A stretch of 31,764 bases of DNA from a virus (Duplodnaviria; Caudoviricetes). The DNA lies in IMG/VR virus record IMGVR_UViG_3300042401_001464, positions 1 to 31,764 of that record. One strand, 5' to 3'. Position numbers and translations under genes: made by a program. Position 1 is the first letter of the stretch; every line of letters starts with the position of its first letter. Positions 5,585-30,770 of this stretch are shown here, in pieces. The notes under the pieces are model-generated. The model was not told the DNA's origin. It was given only the letters and a program-made list of their open reading frames with translations, and searched no databases.

Positions 5585-5943
5585 TCTTTGTGTAGGTAGC
5601 CATTTACTAAATTACTTACCGCAAGTGCCACACCTGCTAAACCTAAACCACCGATGATCCATAGTGGATTATCTTTTAATACTCCAATCATACCGGAAAC
5701 CGCCACAACACTCAATAATAATACTGCGAACATAGGCATTATTCCTTTTGTGTTTGTTACCTTATCAATTCTTTCTACCCACACCAATCTCTCAATTGCA
5801 TCCTGCATGTCTTTTCCGTATGCTGGAACGTCGTGGATTGTTCCATCAACTTCTTGTATGGTTACTTTGTATTTAAAGTATCCTGGGTGATCTTTACTTT
5901 CTCTAATTAGTTCTGCTTTTGTTGCTTTTCTTCTACTCTTCAT
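5581..5943 (-). CDS. Hypothetical membrane protein (2 C-terminal TM helices)
   Basis: 120-aa ORF with hydrophobic C-terminus; ATGA overlap with the next gene. Confidence 0.75.
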   Translation of the reverse strand: MKSRRKATKAELIRESKDHPGYFKYKVTIQEVDGTIHDVPAYGKDMQDAIERLVWVERIDKVTNTKGIMPMFAVLLLSVVAVSGMIGVLKDNPLWIIGGLGLAGVALAVSNLVNGYLHKE

Positions 5944-5963
5944 TTTTGTTTTGTTTCTTTTTA

Positions 5964-5971
5964 CAAATGTA
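5964..5971 (-). promoter_or_regulatory. Bacteroidota-type sigmaA -7 element (TACATTTG)
   Basis: Matches TAnnTTTG; recurs at 6815-6822, 7961-7968, 9249-9256, 9348-9355, 17089-17096, 19976-19983. Confidence 0.65.
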
Positions 5972-6005
5972 TGTATTTATTTTAATTATGTCTGTGAAAT
6001 GTCTG

Positions 6006-6143
6006 TTAATTATTTAATGTTAAATTAACTTTACTTATTATTTTTCTAATGGTGGTCAATATTGATATATTTTTATTAGCATCTTTTCTTAATTTTTCTC
6101 TACTAGATTTAATAGTGCCTTCAATAACTATTCGTGTCTTCAT
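6006..6143 (-). CDS. Possible small basic protein (45 aa, MKTRIVIEG...)
   Basis: ATG..TAA just downstream of tRNA-Ala; no motif recognised. Confidence 0.35.
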   Translation of the reverse strand: MKTRIVIEGTIKSSREKLRKDANKNISILTTIRKIISKVNLTLNN

Positions 6144-6165
6144 ATTTTAATTTAATTTTTTTTCG

Positions 6166-6241
6166 TGGAGCAGGTAGGAATCGAACCTACCACATACGCT
6201 CAGTGCAAATGAGCCCCGCCAGCCTTGGTACATGCTGCCCC
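6166..6241 (-). tRNA. tRNA-Ala(TGC)
   Basis: GCTCA-TT-TGC-AC-TGAGC; G3:U70; atypical D arm. Confidence 0.85.
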
Positions 6242-6299
6242 AAATTGAAGGAAGACTAACCTTCTTTGTCCTTTGTACGTAGGGACTTTTAAGTCTTTT

Positions 6300-6375
6300 T
6301 GGGCGAGAGACGGGCTTGAACCCGCGACCTTCTGGTTGGAAGTCAGATGCTCTAAGCCAACTGAGCTACTCTCGC
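6300..6375 (-). tRNA. tRNA-Gly(TCC)
   Basis: GCGAGAG acceptor; anticodon loop CT-TCC-AA. Confidence 0.9.
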
Positions 6376-6385
6376 GTTTATTTTG

Positions 6386-6459
6386 TACCGATAGCGGGAC
6401 TTGAACCCACAACCTTGACGATATAAGCGTCCTGCTCTCACCAATTGAGCTATATCGGC
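6386..6459 (-). tRNA. tRNA-Ile(TAT)
   Basis: GACG-CT-TAT-AT-CGTC; full cloverleaf. Confidence 0.88.
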
Positions 6460-6468
6460 GTTTCAAAG

Positions 6469-6542
6469 TAGTCCGTATGGGATTCGAACCCATGATCTTC
6501 TCATAGAAAGTGAGACGTGTTAAACCACTTCACTAACGGACC
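6469..6542 (-). tRNA. tRNA-Glu(TTC)
   Basis: TCTCA-CT-TTC-TA-TGAGA. Confidence 0.92.
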
Positions 6543-6552
6543 ATATATTTTG

Positions 6553-6636
6553 TGGGAACCGCGGGATTCGAACCCGCTCAGGCGTAAGCCACTTGTTTTA
6601 CAGACAAGCCCGACTCTCCAACGTCGGCGCGCTCCC
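6553..6636 (-). tRNA. tRNA-Tyr(GTA)
   Basis: CTTGT-CT-GTA-AA-ACAAG; long variable arm. Confidence 0.92.
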
Positions 6637-6643
6637 ATAAACG

Positions 6644-6675
6644 AAAAAACCCAATCTGTTTTGCAGACTGGGTTT
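6644..6675 (-). terminator. Attenuator terminator 1, directly 5' of tRNA-Tyr
   Basis: AAACCCAGTCTG-CAAAA-CAGATTGGG-TTTTTT. Confidence 0.85.
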
Positions 6676-6698
6676 ATCATATTTTGTAATCTTTACAA

Positions 6699-6785
6699 CT
6701 ACTCAACAGACAAAGTCAGTCCACTTACAAAGCTACCCGCTTCATATGCATACCCTATGGCTTCTATTTTGTGTGTTGTTTTCAT
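6699..6785 (-). CDS. Putative attenuation leader peptide 1, MKTTHKIEAIGYAYEAGSFVSGLTLSVE
   Basis: 28 aa between promoter boxes and terminator; 11-codon run of I/E/A/G/Y only. Confidence 0.8.
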   Translation of the reverse strand: MKTTHKIEAIGYAYEAGSFVSGLTLSVE

Positions 6786-6916
6786 TGTTTTAGTTTTTAT
6801 CGTTGTTTCTTTTACAAATATAAGTATTTTTCTTTTACTTGTTCTATATATATTATATTTTTTTCCTCTCTTTTTGTATTTTATCGAAAATAAGTGAAAA
6901 AGTTTTATATTTTTTG

Positions 6917-7000
6917 TGGAAAGCTACGGAATCGAACCGTATACCTTTAGGTACCCACTGTTTTCAAGACAGGGCTGCAGGCCGCTGCAGTTCATCTTCC
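6917..7000 (-). tRNA. Atypical tRNA-Ser(TGA) with 6-bp D stem, imperfect acceptor stem and A73
   Basis: CTGT-CT-TGA-AA-ACAG; long variable arm; GGTTCGATTCC. Confidence 0.7.
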
Positions 7001-7002
7001 AT

Positions 7003-7089
7003 TGGCGGAGAGCAGAGTATTTGAAACCCATTCCTTTCAGAACCACTCGCTTAGCAGGCGGTGTCAGGGACCTCCCTGATTTACTATCC
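7003..7089 (-). tRNA. tRNA-Ser(GCT), 8/4-type fold
   Basis: CGC-CT-GCT-AA-GCG; G73 plus encoded CCA; long variable arm. Confidence 0.8.
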
Positions 7090-7096
7090 ATTTTTG

Positions 7097-7184
7097 CGGA
7101 AAAAGTCGGGCTCGAACCGACACACCACTGGGGCCTACGCATTTCAAGTGCGCTGAGCTTAGTCCTCACTGCTCTTATTTTTCC
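7097..7184 (-). tRNA. tRNA-Ser(TGA)
   Basis: GCGCA-CT-TGA-AA-TGCGT; G73; long variable arm. Confidence 0.85.
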
Positions 7185-7189
7185 TTTTG

Positions 7190-7261
7190 TAGTCCCAGAG
7201 GGATTCGAACCCCCACCTGATCGGCCGTAACGACCTGTCCTGTCCAGTTAGACGATGGAAC
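7190..7261 (-). tRNA. tRNA-Arg(ACG)
   Basis: GGTCG-TT-ACG-GC-CGATC. Confidence 0.88.
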
Positions 7262-7272
7262 TATATAAACAC

Positions 7273-7304
7273 AAAAAACCCTCGGCGTTTAGTCCGAGGG
7301 TTTT
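7273..7304 (-). terminator. Attenuator terminator 2, 5' of tRNA-Arg
   Basis: AAAACCCTCGG-ACTAAACG-CCGAGGG-TTTTTT. Confidence 0.85.
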
Positions 7305-7330
7305 ATTTATATGATACAATTAAAGTATTA

Positions 7331-7408
7331 CTAACTAAATAAACACGTCAGATCTATCACTCTACTCGAGCGACTTAAACTTGACGATATGTTAATAATA
7401 GTTTTCAT
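7331..7408 (-). CDS. Putative attenuation leader peptide 2, MKTIINISSSLSRSSRVIDLTCLFS
   Basis: 25 aa; TCG TCA AGT TTA AGT CGC TCG AGT AGA run. Confidence 0.78.
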   Translation of the reverse strand: MKTIINISSSLSRSSRVIDLTCLFS

Positions 7409-7437
7409 AATTCTTTATTTGTTATATATTATAAATG

Positions 7438-7988
7438 TAGTTCTTTGTTTAGATTATTCTTTCTTTATATCTAAAAGCTGTTTACGTATTTTTCTAAAAT
7501 CTTTTCTTGAATAACCTGATAATCCTTCTTTATTAAATTGTCTGTATAATTTTGAGCAATAGTTAATCTGTTGGTTGATTGCATAGTCTCTACGTTCTTT
7601 CCATGAATCTGTAAAAGGATGATTTTGCATTTCTTTACGATTTCGATATACACTATCACAAAATGTAATCTCGGAGTCTAAAATGGGACTACGTGTATTT
7701 ATATATTTAGTTACCCATTTTTCACGTTCTAATATCTTTTGTCTTTTGTGAATATTTTCTTCGTTTTTTTTATTACGCCACTCTTTAAAAGTCTGTGGGT
7801 GTGAGTTTATATAACTAGAGTTAATATATCCAGAGTAACTATACGAATAGTATTGTCCGTTGATTACTCCGTGACCATTGATACTATAATATTGTGCTGA
7901 TACCAAAATACACGTTAGTAACGAGATGGTCAATAAAATTATTTTTGAATTTCTCATATACAAATATAGTTCTTTGTTTAGATTATTC
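7438..7988. repeat. 22-bp direct repeat TAGTTCTTTGTTTAGATTATTC (7438-7459 and 7967-7988) flanking one ORF
   Basis: Exact match read from the sequence. Confidence 0.9.
7454..7963 (-). CDS. Hypothetical secreted protein
   Basis: 169 aa with an N-terminal signal peptide; TATATTTG at the 5' end, so the true start may be the second Met. Confidence 0.7.
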   Translation of the reverse strand: MYMRNSKIILLTISLLTCILVSAQYYSINGHGVINGQYYSYSYSGYINSSYINSHPQTFKEWRNKKNEENIHKRQKILEREKWVTKYINTRSPILDSEITFCDSVYRNRKEMQNHPFTDSWKERRDYAINQQINYCSKLYRQFNKEGLSGYSRKDFRKIRKQLLDIKKE

Positions 7989-8004
7989 CTAATCTTTTTA
8001 TTTT

Positions 8005-8135
8005 TGGTAGGGAGGTGGGATTCGAACCCACGACCACGCGGTTAACAGCCGAAGTAACTCTTCTATTCGGCACTCTTGCGAGGCAAAGTTATAAATGAGT
8101 ATTGTACGTGCTCTACCAACTGAGCTACTCCCTAC
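8005..8135 (-). tRNA. tRNA with GTT (Asn) anticodon interrupted by a 55-nt insert (8052-8106) in the 5' strand of the anticodon stem
   Basis: Canonical D arm (TAGCTCAGTTGGTAGAGC) and T arm; removing the insert restores CGCGG-CTGTTAA-CCGCG. Confidence 0.8.
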
Positions 8136-8138
8136 GTA

Positions 8139-8360
8139 TTATTTTATTCTTACAATCAGTGATCCTGGATTTAGTGGAATCTCCTCTATTTTGAAGTTGT
8201 AGTCTTTCGATACTTCCTTCACAATATTCTTCATACTCTCACTTATACCCGTAACAACCTCAACTTCATAATGTCCTCGCTGTATCATCTGCCAGTAGAA
8301 CTGATCAAGTTTCAATTGTACATCAGCGTGTTTTGTCCCGTGTAAGTCTAATCTGTTCAT
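8139..8360 (-). CDS. Stand-alone Smr (small MutS-related) domain protein
   Basis: LDLHG...VEVVTG...NPGSLIV motifs. Confidence 0.8.
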   Translation of the reverse strand: MNRLDLHGTKHADVQLKLDQFYWQMIQRGHYEVEVVTGISESMKNIVKEVSKDYNFKIEEIPLNPGSLIVRIK

Positions 8361-8380
8361 AAATTATATATTATGTTCTG

Positions 8381-8455
8381 TGACCCCGGTGGGACTTGAA
8401 CCCACGACCCCTCCATTAAAAGTGGAGTGCTCTGAACCAACTGAGCTACGAAGTC
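8381..8455 (-). tRNA. tRNA-Lys(TTT)
   Basis: CTCCA-CT-TTT-AA-TGGAG. Confidence 0.92.
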
Positions 8456-8463
8456 ATAATTTG

Positions 8464-8536
8464 TGTGGATGACAGGAATTGAACCTGCGCGACCCAGATC
8501 TTCAATCTGGTGCTCTACCTGCTGAGCTACATCCAC
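8464..8536 (-). tRNA. tRNA-Phe(GAA)
   Basis: CCAGA-TT-GAA-GA-TCTGG. Confidence 0.9.
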
Positions 8537-8540
8537 GTTT

Positions 8541-8615
8541 TGGTGTCGAACGGGACTTGAACCCGCGACCTCTGGTTCCACAAAACAGCGCTCTGACCGA
8601 CTGAGTTACCGACAC
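8541..8615 (-). tRNA. tRNA-His(GTG), no encoded G-1
   Basis: CTGTT-TT-GTG-GA-ACCAG; C73. Confidence 0.85.
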
Positions 8616-8617
8616 AG

Positions 8618-8690
8618 TGACCCCGGTGGGTTACGATCCCACTCTCCCCATATTAAAAGTATGGTGCTTTCCCGATTAAGCTACGAAGTC
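8618..8690 (-). tRNA. tRNA-Lys(TTT), variant T loop
   Basis: CCATA-CT-TTT-AA-TATGG; T loop ATCGTAA. Confidence 0.88.
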
Positions 8691-8698
8691 ATATTTTG

Positions 8699-8771
8699 CG
8701 CGTCGCCAAGGATTCGAACCCTGACCCTCTGGGTTGGAACCAGAGATGCTAAGCCGTTACACCAACGACGC
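8699..8771 (-). tRNA. tRNA-Trp(CCA)
   Basis: TCTGG-TT-CCA-AC-CCAGA; G73. Confidence 0.88.
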
Positions 8772-8783
8772 TTGTGTTTTTTG

Positions 8784-8855
8784 TTGCCCCGACAGGGATT
8801 GAACCTGTGATCCCCTGATTAAGAGTCAGGTGCTTTACCGCTCAGCTACAAGGCA
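8784..8855 (-). tRNA. tRNA-Lys(CTT)
   Basis: CCTGA-CT-CTT-AA-TCAGG. Confidence 0.9.
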
Positions 8856-8859
8856 ATTT

Positions 8860-8935
8860 TGGTGGAGCCGACGGGTTACGATCCCGTTCCTCTGGATTTT
8901 CAGTCCAGCGCAATGACCACATCTGCCACAGCTCC
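8860..8935 (-). tRNA. tRNA-Phe(GAA), variant T loop
   Basis: CTGGA-CT-GAA-AA-TCCAG; T loop ATCGTAA; encoded CCA. Confidence 0.88.
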
Positions 8936-8944
8936 TTGTTATGT

Positions 8945-9019
8945 TGGGTGCATGAGGAATTTCGAAATCCCGACCTTCGGCTCCACAAACCGACACTCTG
9001 CCTCTGAGCTACACACACC
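8945..9019 (-). tRNA. tRNA-His(GTG)
   Basis: TCGGT-TT-GTG-GA-GCCGA; G-1:C73. Confidence 0.9.
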
Positions 9020-9032
9020 ATATATGTAAACG

Positions 9033-9062
9033 AAAAAACCCAAGTCTTTTGAACTTGGGTTT
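9033..9062 (-). terminator. Attenuator terminator 3, 5' of tRNA-His
   Basis: AAACCCAAGTT-CAAAA-GACTTGGG-TTTTTT. Confidence 0.85.
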
Positions 9063-9082
9063 CTGTTATTTATTGTTATTGT

Positions 9083-9202
9083 CTACAAAGTCGTCAAATC
9101 TTCCGAAAACAAACACAATACTTTTACAGTACCAAGTTCTGATTTATTGCTAAACCACTTGCTTGATTTACTAAAATGCTTATGTGTATTAATTGTTCTC
9201 AT
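9083..9202 (-). CDS. Putative attenuation leader peptide 3, MRTINTHKHFSKSSKWFSNKSELGTVKVLCLFSEDLTTL
   Basis: 39 aa; H/K/F/W/N(+S) run followed by antiterminator GAACTTGG. Confidence 0.8.
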   Translation of the reverse strand: MRTINTHKHFSKSSKWFSNKSELGTVKVLCLFSEDLTTL

Positions 9203-9294
9203 TATTTCTATATATTAAAAATTTATTCTCTCTTTTTTATTTATAGTACAAATTTAGTAAAAGTTTTTAAATTTACCAAGTTTTTTCATTTATT

Positions 9295-9350
9295 TTGTAA
9301 AAAAGTTGAAACTTGTATCTGAATCGTTTCCCATTCCAACTTTTTTACAA
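9295..9350. repeat. Perfect 14-bp inverted repeat (TTGTAAAAAAGTTG / CAACTTTTTTACAA) with a 28-nt spacer
   Basis: Read from the sequence. Confidence 0.8.
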
Positions 9351-9391
9351 ATTTATGGGCTTTTTCCGTTCTACCTAATTTTATAGGTTTT

Positions 9392-9426
9392 AAAAACAAA
9401 AGTCATAAATAAATTTATGACTTTTG
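9392..9426 (-). terminator. Terminator-like hairpin downstream of the lysozyme gene
   Basis: CAAAAGTCATAAA-TTTA-TTTATGACTTTTG-TTTTT. Confidence 0.65.
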
Positions 9427-9514
9427 AAAAAAAAAATTTTATAACTATGACTCAAATAATAGGGTTATTATCATCAATGTATATATTATAATTTAAATGT
9501 CCCTTTTGATATTT

Positions 9515-9973
9515 TTATTTTTTAAAATATAAATCAGCTTCTGCTGTTCTTCTTGTTACTAAACCTTTCAAAACTTTACCGCCTCCTTTTGTCCATTTCA
9601 TGAACTCTGCTCTAATAGTCTCATCATTTGCATTTGCGTTAACTTTTTTCAACAACGTTGATGATTTTAAGTTTGCTGGTCCCACATTGTAACAAAATGA
9701 TACGATTGCGTCAAATTGGTTTTGAGTTATTGTGTCTATGCAATAAGAATCTACATATTGTTCAAATTTCTCTAAACTTTGTTTCAACATCTCAACTGCT
9801 TTTTGTTCTGTTATTGGTTTGTCATTAAGTGTTACTTTTTTACCATTTTTATAAAACGTATTCCCGTATCCGATAGTGGGAATTTTTGCGGGACATAGAT
9901 AAGGTTTTAGACTAAGTCCTTCGAATCTTTTTATTAATTCTATACCATTATCTGAAATTTTTGTAATTCTCAT
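9515..9973 (-). CDS. Phage lysozyme / endolysin (GH24)
   Basis: IKRFEG..PYLCPAKIPTIGYG; QFDAIVSFCYNVG; GLVTRRTAE. Confidence 0.95.
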   Translation of the reverse strand: MRITKISDNGIELIKRFEGLSLKPYLCPAKIPTIGYGNTFYKNGKKVTLNDKPITEQKAVEMLKQSLEKFEQYVDSYCIDTITQNQFDAIVSFCYNVGPANLKSSTLLKKVNANANDETIRAEFMKWTKGGGKVLKGLVTRRTAEADLYFKK

Positions 9974-10557
9974 AATAATTTTTTATTTTTTGAGCCGTCA
10001 TTTGCGTATTTTATACCCATAATTGTACCTACGATGGAGAATGCATTTGTCAGTAGTATACTTACTAAGTTACTCCATGCTGGTCCTATTATGTTTGTTT
10101 CTTTATTTAGTATTATTGCAACTATATAAAGTGATGTTGCTACAACACCAACACCTATTATTATCCATATTGAAACTTTTACAACTGTGTTTATAAGTTC
10201 ATATTGTGTTCTTTTACGTATTATTTCTAAGTCTTCCTCAGCAACCTCTTTGGCCTTTATTGCGTTTTGTTTAGCTATTTCTGCGATGTTTAATGCATTT
10301 TTCAGTTCCTCACCTATCCTTACATTTTCATCTTTCCATTCTAACAATTCTCTATTTTGTGTTTGTATTTGTTTTGTTATAACTAATCTTTTTCTTCGAT
10401 TGTTTTTATCCTTATCTGTTGCAATTTTAATATATTCTTTGAATTCTAAATCTGTATCATCTGTTTCAATTACTTTAAGAATATTACCTTCCAAATAGAT
10501 ATTATTTATCTTGGCTAATTCGAGAAGGTCTTTCTTTGTATCTTTACAGAGTTTCAT
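9970..10557 (-). CDS. Coiled-coil protein with 2 C-terminal TM helices (holin or lysis-regulator candidate)
   Basis: Hydrophobic segments; ATGA overlap with lysozyme. Confidence 0.6.
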   Translation of the reverse strand: MKLCKDTKKDLLELAKINNIYLEGNILKVIETDDTDLEFKEYIKIATDKDKNNRRKRLVITKQIQTQNRELLEWKDENVRIGEELKNALNIAEIAKQNAIKAKEVAEEDLEIIRKRTQYELINTVVKVSIWIIIGVGVVATSLYIVAIILNKETNIIGPAWSNLVSILLTNAFSIVGTIMGIKYANDGSKNKKLL

Positions 10558-10988
10558 TATTTATATATTTTGAAATTTGCAGTCCTGTTCACATAAGATG
10601 GATAGTCCTTTTTAAATTCTTCTAGTCTTGGTTCTATATCATCATTCTTTATTATCCAAAATTGTGCACCTGCTTGTAGTGCTTTGGCTTGTTCGGTTGC
10701 TTCATTTGAAGATGAGATGATGCCTATAACAACGTGATTTCCATATTCAAAGTTTATTCTTCTGACTAATTCTATTCCGTCAAATGTAGAGCCTATTATA
10801 TTTAAGTCTACAAATACACAAACTGGTCTTCCTGTTGGATTTTTGTGCCATTTTGAGAATTTATTGGATGCCTCATCAGCGCTATCTATACATTCTAATG
10901 TAAGTGAAATATCGAGTAGACTACAAGCGTCTTCAAAAACTAAGTGAAATAGAGACTCATCGTCTACGAGTAGTATTGAATCAATCAT
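10557..10988 (-). CDS. Stand-alone response-regulator receiver domain
   Basis: ILLVDDE; VFVDLN (phospho-Asp); DGIEL; IISSS; WIIK. Confidence 0.9.
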   Translation of the reverse strand: MIDSILLVDDESLFHLVFEDACSLLDISLTLECIDSADEASNKFSKWHKNPTGRPVCVFVDLNIIGSTFDGIELVRRINFEYGNHVVIGIISSSNEATEQAKALQAGAQFWIIKNDDIEPRLEEFKKDYPSYVNRTANFKIYK

Positions 10989-12759
10989 TTTTATATTTTA
11001 TTTTTATTTTAGTACCACCAATGTCTACCTTTTCACATGACACTTTGAATCCATGTTCTTTAAGTATTGCAATGCAGATATTAAGTCCTAAACCAGTTCC
11101 TGATTCCTTTTGGTCAGCTTTTCGCGCATATGGTTTAGAGTATATATCAAATTCTTCTTGTGTTAGTCCACGTCCGTTGTCTTGTATGGCTATTGTATCA
11201 TCGGTATCGTGATATATTTTAACTATTCTGGTTGGACTGTCATTGTATTTTAGACCATTTCTTATTAGATTATCTATTGCCGTACAAAATAGAGATTCGT
11301 TAACTTCGATAGTTGGTAAATTATCAGATAATATAACTGCTTCTTTGTATGCGGTTGATTCTAAATATCGGTTAAGTATTTCTTTTATATTATATGGTTC
11401 AATTTCCAGTACACTATCCTTTTTTACCAGATTTGTAAATTCATACACACCTTTATAAACACGTTGTGTGTGAGTGAGTCCTTCTTTTAGAAGTCTTATT
11501 GGTGCCTCTAATTTATATTCTTTTATTATTTCTGGTTTTAGTCTTCGTATCAATGAGTTTATTCCTTTTGGAATATAGGTATTTATACCTGAGTGCATAT
11601 CGTGTCTCAATATTTTGGCGGCGTGTTCTAAGTATGTGTTTTTCTTTTCGATTTCAATTGATGCATCAACGATTTTGGTTACGTCTTGTCTAATTGATGT
11701 GAATCCGATATGTTCATTAGTTTCTGGATCAAAATCTGCCTTTATATAGGTATCTACAAAATAGTGATGTCCATCTTTTGACTTATTGGTAACAACCTCG
11801 TTCCATATTTCTCTTTTGTTTATTGTGGTTGTGTACATATTTTTCCAAAATTCTTTGTTATGTATACCGGAGCTCAATATTTGATGGTCTTTACCCATAA
11901 CTTCTTTAGTTTTCCATCCTGAAACTTTTGTAAATTTTTCATTGACATAAGTTATTCTACCTCTTTTGTTTGTTTTGGAGACCAACATTGCAGTGTCCAT
12001 AAAATTCTCAATTTCTACAAGATTTTTTTTAGTATCATTACCATCTGCAATTGACCATGAGAATGAGTATAATGATGATAATACTTGTGCGAAATTAACT
12101 TCGGTGTCTATCCAATTTCTTTTGGTGTAACTCTCAATACAAATAACACCTATTGTTTCACCTCTGAATAAAATTGGTACATCTATTAGAGATTTTATAC
12201 CAAGTGGTTTTAGATAGCTTTCGTGTAGACATTCTGTTGCTAAATTTGTTTCTGCATCGTCTGCAACTATAACTGGGTTGGTTAGTAATTCATTGAAATA
12301 TGATAGATAATCACTATATTCTAAACTACCACCCGTTGACCAATCATTATCGGATAATTTATAGAGCATATCCAATTCAATTGATTTAGTTTGATCGTTA
12401 TACAACCAAATTCCACATCTATCAACACCTAAATTTTCAACAACATCTTTGGTTAATATTTTTGAACATTCTAATAAATCGCCATCGTAAAAAACTGGAT
12501 TATGTGATTGGTTTATAAGTGTTAAATTTAATTTATTTGTATAATTATTTAATTTTTCCGCATCTTGTGCTCTTATTAGGTGATCTCTTACCATTCTAAA
12601 GAAAAATGGTAGGGTTGATAAAAAAAATAATATTTCGATTGTTTTTGTACTTGATGAAGTTTCTAATATATCGGTCAACATAAGTAACTTTAGTATAAGG
12701 TAACCCACGGAAAAGGCACTTGTCATTATTATGTTTGTGAGTGTTCTTTTACTAATCAT
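10981..12759 (-). CDS. Membrane sensor histidine kinase (TM-GAF-PAS-HisKA-HATPase)
   Basis: GAF (GIKSLIDVPI..GVICIE); PAS (GRITYVNEKF); H box LRHD; N box NLIRNGLKY; DNGRG; GTGLGL. Confidence 0.93.
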   Translation of the reverse strand: MISKRTLTNIIMTSAFSVGYLILKLLMLTDILETSSSTKTIEILFFLSTLPFFFRMVRDHLIRAQDAEKLNNYTNKLNLTLINQSHNPVFYDGDLLECSKILTKDVVENLGVDRCGIWLYNDQTKSIELDMLYKLSDNDWSTGGSLEYSDYLSYFNELLTNPVIVADDAETNLATECLHESYLKPLGIKSLIDVPILFRGETIGVICIESYTKRNWIDTEVNFAQVLSSLYSFSWSIADGNDTKKNLVEIENFMDTAMLVSKTNKRGRITYVNEKFTKVSGWKTKEVMGKDHQILSSGIHNKEFWKNMYTTTINKREIWNEVVTNKSKDGHHYFVDTYIKADFDPETNEHIGFTSIRQDVTKIVDASIEIEKKNTYLEHAAKILRHDMHSGINTYIPKGINSLIRRLKPEIIKEYKLEAPIRLLKEGLTHTQRVYKGVYEFTNLVKKDSVLEIEPYNIKEILNRYLESTAYKEAVILSDNLPTIEVNESLFCTAIDNLIRNGLKYNDSPTRIVKIYHDTDDTIAIQDNGRGLTQEEFDIYSKPYARKADQKESGTGLGLNICIAILKEHGFKVSCEKVDIGGTKIKIKYKND

Positions 12760-18712: not shown

Positions 18713-19960
18713 TTATTTTTTCTTTTCTTCTTCCTCTTCATTGAAGTATTCGTCCTCTTCGGATCCTCTCTCAGTAACCTTACTAGTGTAAGAGTTTGAT
18801 CCTACGAACTTGTCGAACTCCTCGTCTTGCTCGAAACCTTTACGAATCATCTTAGATGTAATCTCGTGCCAGTTCAACTCGCCGGTGTAAGTGATTTTTA
18901 TCACACCGCCTTCAGGTTTGATTTCGAACTTACCCTCGATGTCGATAGACTTGATATCGTTGATGATTTTGTTCAACTCGACTTCTTTCTCTTCGTCCTC
19001 TTTGCTGTAGTCCTCACGTTTGTCTGTGATGTTTATTTCGTAGAATCCAGATGTGAGCTGAGTGAAAAGAACGTCTTTCTTCAATCCTAAAAGGTCTGCA
19101 ATTTTGTCGGCTACGTGTTTGGTGTTCTCGTCTAATCCGGTTTCGTGTTTCTTCTCTTCGGATACGTGAAAAACAATACCGTTAGGTTCGTTTGTAGGTA
19201 ACATCGTCTCTAAACGTGAGTTTAGAACTTTCAATTCCTCAGTAGTCTTTTTAATCTTTGTCTCTGCGGTGCTTAGTTCGAACTTTGTCTTACCTAATTC
19301 TCTCTCAGATTTCTCGATGCGTTCTTTAAGTTCATTCACTTTTTGTTCATTCATCTTACGGAACGATTCCTCTAAGTAAGTTTCTGATGCAGATTTGAGT
19401 TTGTCGTTAGGCTCAGATGGGTTCTCAATCTCGTTTACCAAAACTTCTGCATCTTTCTCAGAAATTTCAATTTCGTCTTCTTCATCGAAGTCGTTGGTAT
19501 CACCAAATAAAAGATCAAGTGCACTTAAACCTTTTTCTGAAATCTCCGGTTCGTCAAAAATTGAACGAAGTTTATCAATTGGTTTTTGGTGTTCTACTTC
19601 AAGATAGCAGATACCACCATCCTCGTCTTTGAACGTAAATCCGGATGTTACGAATTTATTGGCATATCCAGTCACGTCTGCATCTTCGATTTGTTCGATT
19701 AATCGTTTCAACATAGCTTCGTCTGCGATGTCTGTGTCGATTTCCTCGAAATCTAAGGTACCTTCGTCACGGATTGTCATTTTGAACTTTGTCTTGTCGA
19801 ATAAACCTGACAATTGAGATCCGTCAATATATGCAGTCTCGCGGAAAAGCCTAACTCTTCCTTGTGTCGCCGACATAAAGCTGACGAACTTTCCTTTTGT
19901 TTTAAATTTACCAATTACTGGTGCCTTATCCTGCTTTTCGATTTGTTCTTCCATTTCCAT
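18713..19960 (-). CDS. Acidic coiled-coil hypothetical protein
   Basis: 415-aa ORF with a central heptad region. Confidence 0.8.
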   Translation of the reverse strand: MEMEEQIEKQDKAPVIGKFKTKGKFVSFMSATQGRVRLFRETAYIDGSQLSGLFDKTKFKMTIRDEGTLDFEEIDTDIADEAMLKRLIEQIEDADVTGYANKFVTSGFTFKDEDGGICYLEVEHQKPIDKLRSIFDEPEISEKGLSALDLLFGDTNDFDEEDEIEISEKDAEVLVNEIENPSEPNDKLKSASETYLEESFRKMNEQKVNELKERIEKSERELGKTKFELSTAETKIKKTTEELKVLNSRLETMLPTNEPNGIVFHVSEEKKHETGLDENTKHVADKIADLLGLKKDVLFTQLTSGFYEINITDKREDYSKEDEEKEVELNKIINDIKSIDIEGKFEIKPEGGVIKITYTGELNWHEITSKMIRKGFEQDEEFDKFVGSNSYTSKVTERGSEEDEYFNEEEEEKKK

Positions 19961-20646: not shown

Positions 20647-20658
20647 GGTGGCATTTTT
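20631..20658. terminator. Bidirectional terminator
   Basis: aaaaatgccacc-ctaa-ggtggcattttt. Confidence 0.85.
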
Positions 20659-22190
20659 TATGCTAAAACTGTTTCGGTTCCACTTTTAGTGAGAGCCTCA
20701 ATTTTACCTCTAATCTCTGTAAGTGTGGTTTCGTTGTAAAACTTACCATCTTCGTAGATAACTTGAAGGATTCCTTCTTTCTCTTCGTCAAATGTGCATT
20801 GTACACCTACTGAGTGGTCACCATCTTCTGTTTCATGAACCGAGATAAGTCCTTTCAATGATTTCTTAGTTCCATCATCTGAGATTGGATCTTTGTAGAT
20901 ATCGTGTTGAACTCCATTCTCTTCGAACCAAGCACCTTTTGCTGCAAATCCAAATGTATCACGCGTATTGTATTGGTAAGTATAAGAACCTACACCTAAA
21001 ACAATGTTCGTAGCTGCAAAACCTTTCTCTGCTAATCTCTCATAGATTTGAACCTGACGATCGGTCGTAATAGAGTCACCGTAAATGGCACCGATGTGTG
21101 GGTCTAAGACTTTATATCCTTGTTCATTGATTGTTCCACCAAAGATGTCCCATAAACACTCAATCAATCCTTTTGTGTAGAACTCTGGATAGAATGCGCG
21201 GTTCTCATTATCTGTTAATTCAGTTCTTCCGTGTCCACAGATGATTTCAACTGGATCTCCAGAGTCAGGACGAATAACTAACTTACCATCACGAGATAAG
21301 ATTTGGTCTTTCAGGTCGAAGCAATATCCACCTTCAGATGGTTTGGCAACTTTTGTGATGTCGAACGTATCCATTACTACTGATAAAATACCTTTATCAA
21401 ATTTGTTCATCCAATCGATTAACATTTGTTTCTCACCAACGGTGAAAATTTTGGTAGTAGATACAGAGTGTTCTGATGCATTTACAGAGTTGATACAAAC
21501 TTCATTCTTAGGCTCACCATAGAAGTAACGAGCTGCTGGAATAACTACAATAGTATCAGAACCTCTAAATGACGTAGCGTGTCCTAAGCCAGATGAAACC
21601 ATCGTCCAAGGATCGATACCACGTGCTGAGAAGTCGTGTGCTAAGAAAGGAATCAACCAAGCGTTAGTAGGGTCTGTCTTTAGTACCCACTCGTAAAGGT
21701 TTCGGTTGTACTTAAGTGCGATTGTTGCGGATGTTGCAGGTTTCCACGCCAAAGATGACACGATTGTCTCTAAGAAAAGAGTAAGCCAAGCGTATCCTTT
21801 CTTTGTGTTGACGAACGTCATATGTGGCACGTTCGGTCTTGTCTCGATTCCCTCAGGAAGAGCTTTTGCTCTAATTGGTAAGTAACCTAATTTATGAAGA
21901 GTAATAAAGTGGTCTCCATTAAATTCCATACCTAAATATATACTCATATCTTCAACGAATGATATAGCTTCTTCAACTGGCTTGTTGAAAAAGTTTTCAG
22001 TGAATTCGTCATGAATCCATCGCCAAGTTAGTTGTTGTCCAAATGATACAATTTTATTGATACCTTTTGGTGCGTGTTTTGTAGAACGTGGAATCCATGT
22101 CCCATAAAGGAAGTCAGTTCCTTCTGCGAGCATCGCTTTGTGGCCAATCTTGTAGCCGTCTGTGTAATACAGTGATGTGGGTCTAAACAT
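20658..22190 (-). CDS. nadV: Nicotinamide phosphoribosyltransferase family protein (NAMPT/NadV; probable Namat of NARP1)
   Basis: TDGYKIGH; HDFSARG; ASEHSV; VIRPDSGDP; IYGDSIT; RDTFGFA; KKSLKG. Confidence 0.92.
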   Translation of the reverse strand: MFRPTSLYYTDGYKIGHKAMLAEGTDFLYGTWIPRSTKHAPKGINKIVSFGQQLTWRWIHDEFTENFFNKPVEEAISFVEDMSIYLGMEFNGDHFITLHKLGYLPIRAKALPEGIETRPNVPHMTFVNTKKGYAWLTLFLETIVSSLAWKPATSATIALKYNRNLYEWVLKTDPTNAWLIPFLAHDFSARGIDPWTMVSSGLGHATSFRGSDTIVVIPAARYFYGEPKNEVCINSVNASEHSVSTTKIFTVGEKQMLIDWMNKFDKGILSVVMDTFDITKVAKPSEGGYCFDLKDQILSRDGKLVIRPDSGDPVEIICGHGRTELTDNENRAFYPEFYTKGLIECLWDIFGGTINEQGYKVLDPHIGAIYGDSITTDRQVQIYERLAEKGFAATNIVLGVGSYTYQYNTRDTFGFAAKGAWFEENGVQHDIYKDPISDDGTKKSLKGLISVHETEDGDHSVGVQCTFDEEKEGILQVIYEDGKFYNETTLTEIRGKIEALTKSGTETVLA

Positions 22191-22202
22191 TTTATTTTAT
22201 TT

Positions 22203-22841
22203 TTATTTATTATCTTCGAATATAAGTGTGAATCTTTTTTTTGATAAACTCCATCTCATTTTATAATAGACGAATATGTACTCAGTCTTTTTATCGTCTT
22301 TATAGTTTTGTAGAAAAGTAAATGTCATCCATTTCAATTTTTTACTTTCAATTGCATCCGACACTGATTTTATAGAAATTATTTCATAAAATAAAGAATC
22401 TGAACATGTGCAACTTTCATTTTCGTCAAAAATACGTAAAACAATGTCATTTTTTATTGTGTCTGACATATAATAAAAGAAACGAATTATTGAAAACTCG
22501 GCTTTCGGATCATCTATTTCTTCACTTATAACATATTTTAGTTTTTCGTTGTTTTCAAATAATAATTTCCTTCTATCTGCGGCCAATGTGTTAATCTTTA
22601 CATTGACATCTTTGTTAGTCATAAAAATACCATTCTTATGAATATGTTTTGCAATAGTTTCTATTAAGTTTATGGAATCGTATTCGTGTAAATATGAGTA
22701 AGTGTGTCCATTATCCACAAAGTAATATTCCTTTAGGTTGGGTTCCTCATAATATATTGGTGTGTCCGCCTGTGAGAGACTAAAAAACGAAAATGATATA
22801 ATAAATATCGTTAGCATTCTGTTTATCACATCAGTTCTCAT
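22203..22841 (-). CDS. Hypothetical secreted protein
   Basis: 212 aa with a signal peptide. Confidence 0.7.
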   Translation of the reverse strand: MRTDVINRMLTIFIISFSFFSLSQADTPIYYEEPNLKEYYFVDNGHTYSYLHEYDSINLIETIAKHIHKNGIFMTNKDVNVKINTLAADRRKLLFENNEKLKYVISEEIDDPKAEFSIIRFFYYMSDTIKNDIVLRIFDENESCTCSDSLFYEIISIKSVSDAIESKKLKWMTFTFLQNYKDDKKTEYIFVYYKMRWSLSKKRFTLIFEDNK

Positions 22842-23028
22842 TATATTTTCTTTTATTATGTTCTTTCTCTATTCCTTTCGCCAAACATTCGTTTTGAGAT
22901 TCCTCTTCAAATACTCCACCCATAAAGATAAAGAATATTCCTGGTAATGAAAGTAAGAAAGAAGGTATTATAAGAATCATTCCGAATATCCTAAATATGG
23001 CTCCTAATATGTTGATCATTTTTCTCAT
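22831..23028 (-). CDS. Small membrane protein
   Basis: 65 aa, hydrophobic N-terminal half; overlaps both neighbours. Confidence 0.6.
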   Translation of the reverse strand: MRKMINILGAIFRIFGMILIIPSFLLSLPGIFFIFMGGVFEEESQNECLAKGIEKEHNKRKYNEN

Positions 23029-23441
23029 ATCTCGTATATTCCTGGTTCGTCTGACTCGTCCAAAAAACGGAATTTTACCATAGTCTTTCCGACTAATTCG
23101 TGTGTCGACGTTTTGTTAACGTTTTCTATTTCTCCTATTGTGTATGCGGTTCTTACAGAATCTGGTATTCCTTGTCGTATACACATTTCAGAATAAAGTC
23201 TGTGAATTTCTTCCGCAATCTCTCTAACCTTCTCTGGCTTAGTTGTACATCCAGGATGTACATCCTCGTCCATAGGTATAACAATTTCGTCTTTGAACCT
23301 CTCGTTTATATACTCTGCAATAGTCGCGACATTTTCTTGAAAGGATTTAGGTGTCTCGGAAAGGAAATGACAATACTTTATCCAATCACCAGGAACACCA
23401 TCTTTTGGACATATCTTTGTGTATATAACTCCGTATTCCAT
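23025..23441 (-). CDS. Hypothetical protein
   Basis: 138-aa ORF in operon context. Confidence 0.75.
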   Translation of the reverse strand: MEYGVIYTKICPKDGVPGDWIKYCHFLSETPKSFQENVATIAEYINERFKDEIVIPMDEDVHPGCTTKPEKVREIAEEIHRLYSEMCIRQGIPDSVRTAYTIGEIENVNKTSTHELVGKTMVKFRFLDESDEPGIYEI

Positions 23442-23442
23442 C

Positions 23443-24252
23443 TTATACCGTTTGTGGTTTGTTAAAAACTGTTCCTTCTAAAAGATAAACAAGATCATAA
23501 GTTGTCAAATTGTTGAGCTCGTAATATCCGAATTTCGAGTTGGTTGTGAATATTTTGTCATAGTGCTGCTCCAACTCAGGGTTAGGATTCTGAACCGTCA
23601 TATGTGATACTGCTAAGTAAAGTTTACCCGCGTTTCTTTCTTTCAGAAGTTTAGCCAAACCAACAAAAGTTCCTCCAAAAACACAAAGGTCATCAATAAC
23701 AAGAATATCTTTACCCTCAAAGTCTTCGTTCTCGATTACTTGCGTTAGCTTGTGTGTGATTAGGTCTCTCGACTTACTCGCACTATACACCTCACCCTCG
23801 AACTTAATTTTATCTGCTAATTTATTGATCCATTTGAACGATCCTGCGTCAGTTGATAAAAGCACCGGTTCCTGTTCCAGGTCTTTTAGAACCTGTGATA
23901 TAAAAGCACTATTGTCTACGACTCTAGCGTTTCTCACTCCCATTCCTGTTGAATCTGAGTGTGGATGGAATATTGTAACCTTGCTAAAATCACAAGAGTT
24001 GATAAAGTCTGCAACAAGTTTTAGTTCAAAAGACTCATTGTCTGCAAATCTACGGTCGTGTTGTTGTTGGAACATGCACGGTATAAAAAGCTCTACATCG
24101 TTTACTCCGTTAAAGTCACAAACGTCTTTGATCGACTTTATAAAGAAAAGGTCCTCGTATGAATTTATCCTCTCTACAATCTGTGGATTGGTGAAGTCTT
24201 GTACCTCTGCATAAATACCACCATCGGGATATTTTTTTCTAGTATATTTCAT
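23443..24252 (-). CDS. prs: Ribose-phosphate pyrophosphokinase family protein (probable Adps of NARP1)
   Basis: YPDG; QHDRR; HPHS; STDAGS; KSRD; VIDDLCVFGGTF; AVSH. Confidence 0.88.
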   Translation of the reverse strand: MKYTRKKYPDGGIYAEVQDFTNPQIVERINSYEDLFFIKSIKDVCDFNGVNDVELFIPCMFQQQHDRRFADNESFELKLVADFINSCDFSKVTIFHPHSDSTGMGVRNARVVDNSAFISQVLKDLEQEPVLLSTDAGSFKWINKLADKIKFEGEVYSASKSRDLITHKLTQVIENEDFEGKDILVIDDLCVFGGTFVGLAKLLKERNAGKLYLAVSHMTVQNPNPELEQHYDKIFTTNSKFGYYELNNLTTYDLVYLLEGTVFNKPQTV

Positions 24253-29089: not shown

Positions 29090-29171
29090 AATATATATAT
29101 TTTACTTTTATATATTATTACTTACAATGTACCCGAGAAATAAACCACTACTCTACTACTCTATATTTTTG

Positions 29172-29244
29172 TCTAAGTGGGAGGTCACGATCCCCCGGCC
29201 TGAGAGTCCCAAACTCCCCGCTCTACCATCTGAGCTACACCTAG
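29172..29244 (-). tRNA. tRNA-Pro(TGG), variant T loop
   Basis: GGGAG-TT-TGG-GA-CTCTC; T loop ATCGTGA. Confidence 0.85.
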
Positions 29245-29254
29245 TTATTTCTTG

Positions 29255-29326
29255 CGGTCTATGCGAGAATCGAACTCGCGTCTCCTCATAGACAGTGAGG
29301 AAGGATAACCACTACCCTAATAGACC
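29255..29326 (-). tRNA. tRNA-Asp(GTC)
   Basis: CCTCA-CT-GTC-TA-TGAGG; G73. Confidence 0.9.
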
Positions 29327-29333
29327 ATTTTTG

Positions 29334-29407
29334 TTGTCCCGCCTGGGCTCGAACCAGGAGTCTTCGCGGCCAAAACGCGACGATTTGCCTAATTAATCTA
29401 CAGGACA
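29334..29407 (-). tRNA. tRNA-Gln(TTG)
   Basis: TCGCG-TT-TTG-GC-CGCGA; U1:A72. Confidence 0.9.
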
Positions 29408-29413
29408 ATTTTG

Positions 29414-29488
29414 TAGGGTAGACCGGACTCGAACCGACACTATGTCCTCATCCCAAATGAGGCGGCCTACCAATTGGCCAACTACCCT
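29414..29488 (-). tRNA. tRNA-Pro(TGG)
   Basis: CCTCA-TT-TGG-GA-TGAGG. Confidence 0.88.
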
Positions 29489-29499
29489 AAGTATAAACG

Positions 29500-29529
29500 A
29501 AAAAACCCAGTTAGTAACTAACTGGGTTT
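29500..29529 (-). terminator. Attenuator terminator 4, 5' of tRNA-Pro
   Basis: AAACCCAGTTAG-TTA-CTAACTGGG-TTTTTT. Confidence 0.85.
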
Positions 29530-29550
29530 ATAATCATTTAAGCTTTTTAT

Positions 29551-29649
29551 TTAACTTTTTGACAATATACAGTTAGTCCCAAGTAACTTAGGTTGATCCT
29601 GATCCTGCGGGATGTTTACTACTGCGATATTTTTGTTAAAAGTTTTCAT
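29551..29649 (-). CDS. Putative attenuation leader peptide 4, MKTFNKNIAVVNIPQDQDQPKLLGTNCILSKS
   Basis: 32 aa; CCG CAG GAT CAG GAT CAA CCT run followed by antiterminator GACTAACTG. Confidence 0.82.
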   Translation of the reverse strand: MKTFNKNIAVVNIPQDQDQPKLLGTNCILSKS

Positions 29650-30557: not shown

Positions 30558-30560
30558 TTA

Positions 30561-30770
30561 TAGATTAGTATTATCGACACCTTTACCCTTTGGACTTAGT
30601 CAGTTCGTCCGTTCGGGTTCTGTACTCGCTTCTTTCCGACTTGATTTCTAATCCTTGTCGGTTATAGCTTTCCTCCCAGTCCACGTATTGTTTGCGCAAC
30701 TATCCGTGATGCAAAGGGTCAGATCATTTGCACGATGGCTATTCCCTCCATCTTATCGATTACTAATCTA
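30561..30770 (-). ncRNA. Unknown ~210-nt structured RNA between two tRNAs
   Basis: Closing stem TAGATTAGTA-ATCGA / TCGAT-AA-TACTAATCTA; several internal helices; no ORF. Confidence 0.65.

Follow-up and report, generated by a model that had tools for sequence, protein, structure and literature searches.

Classical attenuation is known for protein-coding operons. In Escherichia coli, the leader thrL (threonine and isoleucine), like trpL, hisL and ilvL, is a short ORF whose sensing codons stand in a run; an antiterminator strand lies in the last third of the ORF, and about 25 nt lead on to a GC stem with a U tract. The leader-peptide attenuator pheM/pheST controls phenylalanyl-tRNA synthetase and responds to the level of charged tRNA. 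T-box riboswitches are terminator/antiterminator switches that respond to tRNA charging; they have been reported before tRNA genes in some Firmicutes, but no such report was found in the literature searched.

T boxes bind uncharged tRNA directly, via an element of 200–300 nt (PMC4052509). Upstream of amino-acid operons of Flavobacterium psychrophilum, the accessible text of PMC9723704 describes 'strong clues' of leader-peptide attenuation. The available parts of PMC8421152 and PMC10272220 describe the trn operon of Anabaena, a tRNA L-array that is controlled by the repressor TrcR and switched on by translational stress; 'attenuat' occurs nowhere in the available part of PMC8421152. In the literature accessible to us, mostly main texts from outside the subscription journals, we came across no description of tRNA genes controlled by leader-peptide attenuation. 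An Rfam motif name for tRNA-adjacent freshwater RNAs turned up neither in the literature searched nor in the main text of PMC5737381, whose supplements might describe such motifs.

We describe here a phage leader that, judging from its sequence and from folding models, is very probably a classical ribosome-mediated transcription attenuator, wired to tRNA genes as negative feedback. It lies in the window, a whole virus record of 31.8 kb, which holds three further leader-terminator-tRNA units. In the direction of transcription, the locus is composed as follows.

7432..7439, minus strand: promoter-like -7 box TACATTTA, differing at one position from the Bacteroidota TAnnTTTG, with a start predicted near 7427
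7331..7408, minus strand: leader ORF MKTIINISSSLSRSSRVIDLTCLFS, 25 codons, with A at -3 and Shine-Dalgarno absent
7361..7387, minus strand: sensing codons 8-16, TCG TCA AGT TTA AGT CGC TCG AGT AGA (sequence; family codon table)
7356..7374, minus strand: possible protector or pause hairpin GUCGCUC-GAGUA-GAGUGAU (MFE folds)
7336..7356, minus strand: antiterminator strand UAGAUCUGA...UUUAUUUA, pairing with 7309-7290 (duplex, covariation, constrained folds)
7273..7304, minus strand: intrinsic terminator AAAACCCUCGG-ACUAAACG-CCGAGGGUUUU with U tract; 11-pair GC stem 7304-7275, -17.0 kcal/mol
7189..7262, minus strand: tRNA-Arg(ACG) (ARAGORN default; Rfam 49 bits; cloverleaf)
about 7096..7184, minus strand: tRNA-Ser(TGA), copy 1 (Rfam tRNA 44 bits; ARAGORN at relaxed threshold; cloverleaf)
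7003..7089, minus strand: tRNA-Ser(GCT) with an atypical 6-bp D stem (cloverleaf fold; alignment with the Ser(GCT) genes of relatives)
about 6917..7000, minus strand: tRNA-Ser(TGA), copy 2, with a 6-bp D stem (ARAGORN at relaxed threshold; cloverleaf; best Rfam model tRNA-Sec)

The phage leader shares the whole layout of thrL-type leaders given above. It differs in controlling tRNAs, in being phage-encoded and in being repeated for each tRNA block; it has no sequence homology to them at Rfam thresholds, and its 1:2 protector shows no covariation in the phage family. Since tRNA genes are what it controls, the molecule produced would be the very one that is sensed. The Rfam His, Thr, Trp, Leu and Phe leader families give no match at gathering score at the window leader, nor in 20 related loci; a weak His_leader match at 7270-7401 (E 0.79) reaches 23.6 bits against a cut-off of 49. 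The leader is placed outside the known amino-acid operon leader families, as its downstream genes are tRNAs and not biosynthesis or synthetase proteins. With pheM/pheST it has in common that a component of translation is controlled by a leader peptide, whereas pheM/pheST regulates a synthetase protein, concerns a single amino acid and is chromosomal. Unlike a T box, the phage leader is about 150 nt long and bears an ORF; the T-box model has no match at E<=1 in 5900-9500, nor at gathering score in 20 related loci. By function, the Anabaena operon comes nearest: as far as its available descriptions go, it resembles the phage system in that supernumerary, normally silent tRNA genes are turned on when translation is impaired; there, however, a protein repressor acts at initiation on the whole array, in contrast to a leader predicted to act in cis, codon-specifically and block by block. 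By folding models and by analogy, the phage leader works like the multivalent attenuators thrL and ilvL, outside any Rfam leader or T-box family.

The leader ORF reads ATG AAA ACT ATT ATT AAC ATA TCG TCA AGT TTA AGT CGC TCG AGT AGA GTG ATA GAT CTG ACG TGT TTA TTT AGT TAG. The preliminary description had proposed an SSSLSRSSR leader ahead of Arg-Ser-Ser-Ser tRNAs, and both parts are borne out: codons 8-16 encode exactly this peptide, and the cassette downstream is Arg(ACG), Ser(TGA), Ser(GCT), Ser(TGA). It was also right that TCG/TCA and AGT are read by the Ser(TGA) and Ser(GCT) of the cassette and CGC by its Arg(ACG), codon-anticodon assignments that follow the standard wobble rules. Serine and arginine account for 8 of the 12 core codons, against a background of 10% in the proteins of the window (P=3e-6). 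As in an attenuator, a short, presumably translated ORF is enriched in regulatory codons, and the enrichment is frame-specific.

In this cassette ARAGORN found only tRNA-Arg at default settings, and Rfam added two Ser genes. The second Ser(TGA) copy reaches 45 bits with the tRNA-Sec model, under its cut-off of 47, and was called Ser(TGA) in one ARAGORN run and miscalled Gln in two others. Ser(GCT) at 7003-7089 was called by neither ARAGORN nor Rfam; its anticodon arm is common to 12 of 17 aligned Ser(GCT) genes of relatives. ARAGORN runs with long introns allowed gave many false calls and were left out of the counts. The two tRNAs at 6917-7000 and 7003-7089 (minus strand) resemble tRNA-Sec in their D arm, a 6-bp stem closed by a 4-nt loop, and long D stems recur among the Ser(GCT) genes of relatives. 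In a related locus, L001, the first Ser gene (about 7948-7987) is a 40-nt remnant that retains both strands of the acceptor stem and the 3' end; a contig of run X9 shows a similar internal deletion.

Homologues were collected with a tRNA-blind pattern, AGTCGCTCR followed by a terminator, which matched 26 viral and 118 metagenome loci. A tRNA stands behind 40 of these 144 matches and none behind 104; the first tRNA is Arg in 38 of the 40 and Ser in 2, repeated contigs being included in all these counts. Together with earlier loci, this Arg-Ser family comprises 33 distinct leaders (35 before duplicate removal). Seven of them, among them that of the window, came to light independently of the pattern; in the remaining 26, conservation of S-R-S is circular because AGTCGCTCR was part of their search. 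The spacing between stop and terminator is 22-30 nt in all 33. TTA (Leu) is a private variant of the window copy: Ser occupies its place in 32 of 33 homologues, and in runs X9 and X13 nearly identical contigs read TCA there. The family does not conserve AGA (codon 16) as a sensor: of the 33, 12 have Arg(AGR) at this position, 14 have Lys and 7 have other residues.

Among 50,697 GenBank phage records, LR756502.1 (642 kb) and LR745206.1 (634 kb), which contribute two of the 33 leaders, are the only two that cover the leader and the Arg tRNA; a 415-aa protein of the window (18713-19960) matches only these same two (48% identity). Complete phage genomes of 634, 636, 642 and 735 kb have been reported, the largest belonging to the Mahaphage clade, whose hosts are predicted to be Bacteroidetes; 'attenuat' occurs 0 times in the available text (PMC7162821). 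The runs that contain the region are mostly lake or freshwater metagenomes. Other searches were less productive: the exact-leader pattern had 0 matches in viral contigs; a terminator-only pattern gave 97 loci, with tRNA cassettes located by script in only one, a close relative already known; a neighbour-protein search gave 13 loci, with cassettes kept only in L001; the cultured phage PTm1 had no match. In assembled contigs of four RNA-labelled runs, one 216-nt contig (X16) spans 7182-7396 at a depth of 2.6 with 2 differences, covering leader, terminator and Arg tRNA. As it may derive from either strand and from DNA carry-over, it is at most a hint of read-through.

The terminator stem begins about 30 nt past the leader stop, and tRNA-Arg follows 16 nt behind the stem; the terminator stands between the leader and the regulated genes, as an attenuator requires. 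Across the 33 homologues 97.5% of its cells are paired, with two-sided changes at 6 of 12 pairs. The U tract is present in all 33 rows, which the search pattern partly imposed.

Aligning the leader with its homologues, a check proposed in the preliminary description, revealed a covarying alternative helix. In it, UAG(A)UCUGA pairs with UCGGACUA (7297-7290) and UUUAUUUA with UAAAUAAA (about 7309-7302). In the family alignment the end of the ORF (A/G-U-C/U-CGA) pairs with the 5' arm of the terminator in 88.5% of cells, several of the unpaired ones being rows, the window's included, whose register is shifted by one column. Two-sided changes occur at 3 of 6 pairs: G-C/A-U (13:10), U-A/C-G (17:6) and A-U/U-A (26:2). 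Its covariation score was reached by 0 of 500 shuffles, a value that overstates independence because the sequences are related and the shuffles blind to kinship; slid controls are paired in at most 50% of cells. In the window, the duplex has -9.1 kcal/mol, the weakest of the 33 (family mean -13.4), and a U-G pair at 7350 is C-G in the X9 and X13 relatives.

The same preference emerges independently of alignment. Duplexes between leader and terminator arm average -13.4 kcal/mol for cognate partners of the Arg-Ser family and -10.1±0.4 for swapped ones; for 65 general units, described below, the values are -11.7 and -7.2±0.3. The segment further upstream gives only -6.1 for cognate and -5.2 for swapped. 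Covariation and cognate-versus-swapped duplexes both indicate that antiterminator and terminator are mutually exclusive, as in an attenuator. Two other antiterminators had been suggested for this leader, and neither holds. UCGAG with CUCGG lies within the sensing codons, is paired in 67.5% of cells without compensatory change, is equalled by 500 of 500 shuffles of the 33 homologues and forms a duplex of -5.8 kcal/mol against -9.1. The stretch needed for UUUAGUU with GACUAAA occurs in only 3 of 33 rows, with a duplex of -5.3 kcal/mol against -9.1.

Upstream of the leader, the consensus TAnnTTTG, known as the Bacteroidota -7 box (PMC6847099), is found in 12 of 32 Arg-Ser family leaders against 0.5 in shuffles, and in 30 of the 65 general leaders against 2.4. 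In the X13 relative, two changes turn the box of the window into the full consensus. A Shine-Dalgarno motif is found in 0 of 32 family leaders; a purine at -3 is present in 33 of 33. Between the ATG and the tRNA, TAnnTTTG occurs in 1 of 33 homologues, and the gap from terminator to tRNA is only 7-21 nt, which leaves no room for a promoter behind the terminator. A 30-nt direct repeat (93%; 7430-7459 and 7959-7988 of the window) carries the promoter-like box and flanks a 169-aa ORF (7454-7963). This ORF is missing in the X9 and X13 relatives and in L001, where the Asn tRNA is joined straight to the leader. From this arrangement, the ORF is apparently a recent insertion with promoter duplication.

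To model the ribosome, the nascent RNA was folded up to the 5' arm of the terminator, with nucleotides to 12 past the A site kept unpaired as the assumed cover. Without a ribosome, the antiterminator strand of the window leader is predicted to be sequestered by the Ser codons, and the antiterminator has a probability of 0. Seven A-site positions between codons 5 and 16 were tested: at six of them (codons 5, 8 and 12-16) the probability is 0.79-0.99; codon 10 gives 0.32, which climbs to 0.93 once three nucleotides of the 3' arm are included. From codon 18 onward it is at most 0.31. A stall near the Arg codon lets every one of the 33 homologues fold into the antiterminator; at the stop 0 of 33 do so, a result that follows by construction from the assumed cover geometry. 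In these constrained folds, a stall frees the antiterminator and a stop-bound ribosome covers it, as attenuation demands.

At equilibrium the finished terminator of the window leader prevails whatever the state of the ribosome, so the switch must be kinetic. The E. coli thrL leader (NC_000913.3), folded as a control, gives the same three-state pattern; with its U tract, it also ends terminator-dominated in all states tested but one. In MFE folds of the window copy, the protector hairpin with its flanking pairs sequesters the antiterminator when no ribosome is bound. In the family its cells are paired to 88%, with no compensatory change and not above shuffles. The antiterminator forms without a ribosome in 26 of 33 homologues, which makes a general protector doubtful.

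The three sibling units of the window are the following.

6165..6785, minus strand: cassette with the YEIGA-rich leader MKTTHKIEAIGYAYEAG... (6785-6699), terminator 6675-6647, tRNAs Tyr, Glu, Ile(TAT), Gly, Ala
8006..9202, minus strand: cassette with the HKFWN leader MRTINTHKHFSKSSKWFSNK... (9202-9083), terminator 9062-9036, tRNAs His, Phe, Lys, Trp, Lys, His, Phe, Lys, and Asn after a small ORF
29171..29649, minus strand: cassette with the PQD leader MKTFNKNIAVVNIPQDQDQPK... (29649-29551), terminator stem 29526-29506, tRNAs Pro, Gln, Asp, Pro

In the order listed, 11 of 15, 11 of 26 and 7 of 19 core codons are cognate to the cassette, and the antiterminators have -16.7, -15.0 and -9.7. Each of the four window leaders matches its own cassette better than the best other one (8 vs 1, 11 vs 2, 11 vs 5 and 7 vs 4 codons). 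Two short hairpins between tRNA-Gly and tRNA-Ala (6240-6300, minus strand) are conserved in L001. The tRNA-Asn(GTT) gene (8006-8134 of the window, minus strand; L001 7551-7680) has a structured insertion of 55-56 nt on the 5' side of the anticodon stem, almost identical between window and L001; it might be a small intron or else an additional domain. Roughly this stretch is skipped by some contigs of RNA-labelled runs, which may be tRNAs of other organisms.

We also searched viral sequences blindly to any leader, with a pattern of terminator plus tRNA T-arm (120 loci, 21 of 64 collection parts). Out of 95 terminator-tRNA units, 81 have an ATG ORF of 14-45 codons that ends 15-46 nt upstream; the 14 units lacking it were dropped, and de-duplication left 65 (loci L192-L231 have truncated cassettes). 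In these, 345 of 1032 core codons are cognate to the downstream tRNAs, against 152±15 with cassettes shuffled, where 10,000 shuffles gave at most 213; here too, relatedness of the sequences makes the shuffle values overstate independence. Over the last 8 codons the match is no higher than background. The signal is confined to the ATG frame (z 13.0; +1, +2 and reverse frames -0.3, 0.3 and 0.7), which implies that selection acts on translated codons. Cognate codons reach at least 30% in only 37 of the 65 units.

The match extends to arginine isoacceptors: leaders of CGN-reading cassettes have 8 CGN to 1 AGR codons and those of AGR-reading ones 1 to 5 (Fisher P=0.011). It is suggestive for Ile (11 ATY to 2 ATA with GAT/AAT tRNAs) and not evident at this level for Ser or Leu. 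A 476 kb record whose completeness is rated at 97% was examined over 100 kb; this part has 52 tRNA calls and six matched leader-terminator units: FHWK, RS, EY, NIL(VTM), DP and Q. In two viral contigs, GOLLD RNA precedes leader-terminator-tRNA units by a few hundred bases (L128 1069-1483; L148 1306-1716).

In bacterial genomes, the same blind pattern (120 loci, 29 of 64 parts) gave 73 terminator-tRNA units, of which 20 have a leader ORF, compared with 81 of 95 in viral loci. The cognate excess is weak (64 of 313 core codons vs 35±8) and appears to be carried by a few clear cases. Chitinophaga rupis DSM 21039 has a MKLMMSYSSSCYRY... leader before Tyr, Ser, Cys and Ser tRNAs, with a TATCTTTG box and an antiterminator of -13.2, among ordinary chromosomal neighbours (L478; G001:C6:1163100-1163700). 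A Planctomycetota bin has a poly-Ser leader before two Ser tRNAs, and two small genomes (0.9-1.1 Mb), one of them a Magasanikbacteria bin, have poly-Asn leaders before a lone tRNA-Asn; besides L478, the loci of matched units in bacterial genome records are L460, L469 and L476. Among 401 Bacteroidota genomes the pattern matched 6, with a matched leader only in the seed genome C. rupis, a lower bound since one strict pattern was used. Within the limits of that pattern, the system looks from its sequence distribution to be mainly phage-borne and sporadic in cells.

We propose the following course of events. Host RNA polymerase would start near 7427 at the Bacteroidota-type promoter, and a ribosome would load on the ATG; we infer that the leader is translated and that transcription and translation are coupled in the host. 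With ample charged tRNA, the folding predicts that the ribosome reaches TAG and covers the antiterminator; the terminator would then form, 16 nt short of the first tRNA. Should the ribosome stall on TCR, AGT or CGC, 7356-7336 would stay free, and this strand, whose pairing is backed by covariation, would capture the 5' arm of the terminator before the 3' arm is made; the Arg and Ser tRNAs would then be transcribed. The tRNAs produced would read exactly the sensed codons, which closes a negative feedback loop. The phage tRNA set would be divided into several separately sensed blocks.

Defences that cleave host tRNAs exist. The useful trigger is most likely a loss of host tRNA, by decay or nuclease cleavage in infection; Ser or Arg starvation would trip the switch too. 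The leader cannot tell starvation from tRNA loss, and we favour the latter as the selective reason because extra tRNA helps chiefly there. In the accessible text of PMC3862929, TCN and AGY groups of Ser isoacceptors differ in starvation sensitivity in Bacillus; the mixed TCN and AGY codons of the leader would cover both.

The attenuator reading, put forward in the preliminary description, is supported by the family, frame, covariation and folding tests. It might nonetheless be true of the family and fail for the window copy, which would then be decaying, with constitutive termination or leak, its tRNAs coming mainly from read-through or a phage antitermination factor. The oddities of this copy speak in that direction: its antiterminator is the weakest of the family and has U-G where relatives have C-G, a Ser codon has become Leu, the promoter box is one off consensus, and the 169-aa ORF has been inserted upstream between direct repeats. 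We nevertheless consider decay rather unlikely: the ORF with its frame, the spacing and the terminator have all been kept, each of the variants is a single substitution in a population otherwise nearly identical, and the predicted fold retains the switch, with values of 0 when no ribosome is present, 0.8-1.0 for a stall at codons 12-16 and 0 for a ribosome at the stop.

It is less likely still that the codons are sensed with pre-tRNA processing or stability as the output, or that the hairpin is mainly a processing or stop signal for upstream transcripts. Such a role would suit the dominance of the complete terminator at equilibrium in all states, the poor conservation of the protector, and L001, where the stretch from the upstream Asn tRNA to the leader shows no evident terminator, so that longer transcripts may run through. 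The helix between ORF end and terminator arm, covarying and exclusive with the terminator, is instead the signature of antitermination, and the U tract of all 33 rows, though partly imposed by the search, also points away from processing. A Ser-rich ORF might lie by chance in AT-rich DNA beside an ordinary terminator, as short ORFs abound and a terminator was built into the search patterns. Given the frame-specific enrichment (z 13), the match of 4/4 window cassettes and the absence of such ORFs from most bacterial terminator-tRNA junctions (present in 20/73 vs viral 81/95), we give coincidence hardly any credence.

Elsewhere in the window, a non-coding, GC-richer stretch of some 210 nt, possibly a structured RNA, lies between tRNA-Trp and tRNA-Met (30560-30770, minus strand). 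A GAF/PAS histidine kinase and a response-regulator receiver stand beside a lysozyme (9970-12759, minus strand). An NAD salvage pair of NAMPT-like and PRPP-synthetase-like genes occupies 20658-24252 (minus strand), the NAMPT being 63% identical to that of Tenacibaculum phage PTm1.

Why and when phages express their tRNA genes is a long-standing open question. With moderate confidence, we propose that giant Bacteroidota phages run a genome-wide circuit of tRNA homeostasis, in which a codon-matched attenuator for each block would sense host tRNAs that are destroyed or drained, for example by an anticodon-nuclease defence, and replace just those; the same cassettes would have entered some bacterial chromosomes (Chitinophaga rupis, the Magasanikbacteria bin). 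In C. rupis DSM 21039, a natural chromosomal example is at hand in a cultured bacterium. If the attenuator reading is true, classical attenuation extends to a loop whose product is the sensed molecule. A codon-matched attenuator per tRNA block would imply that phage tRNAs are an on-demand supply, with each leader naming the codons that the phage monitors.
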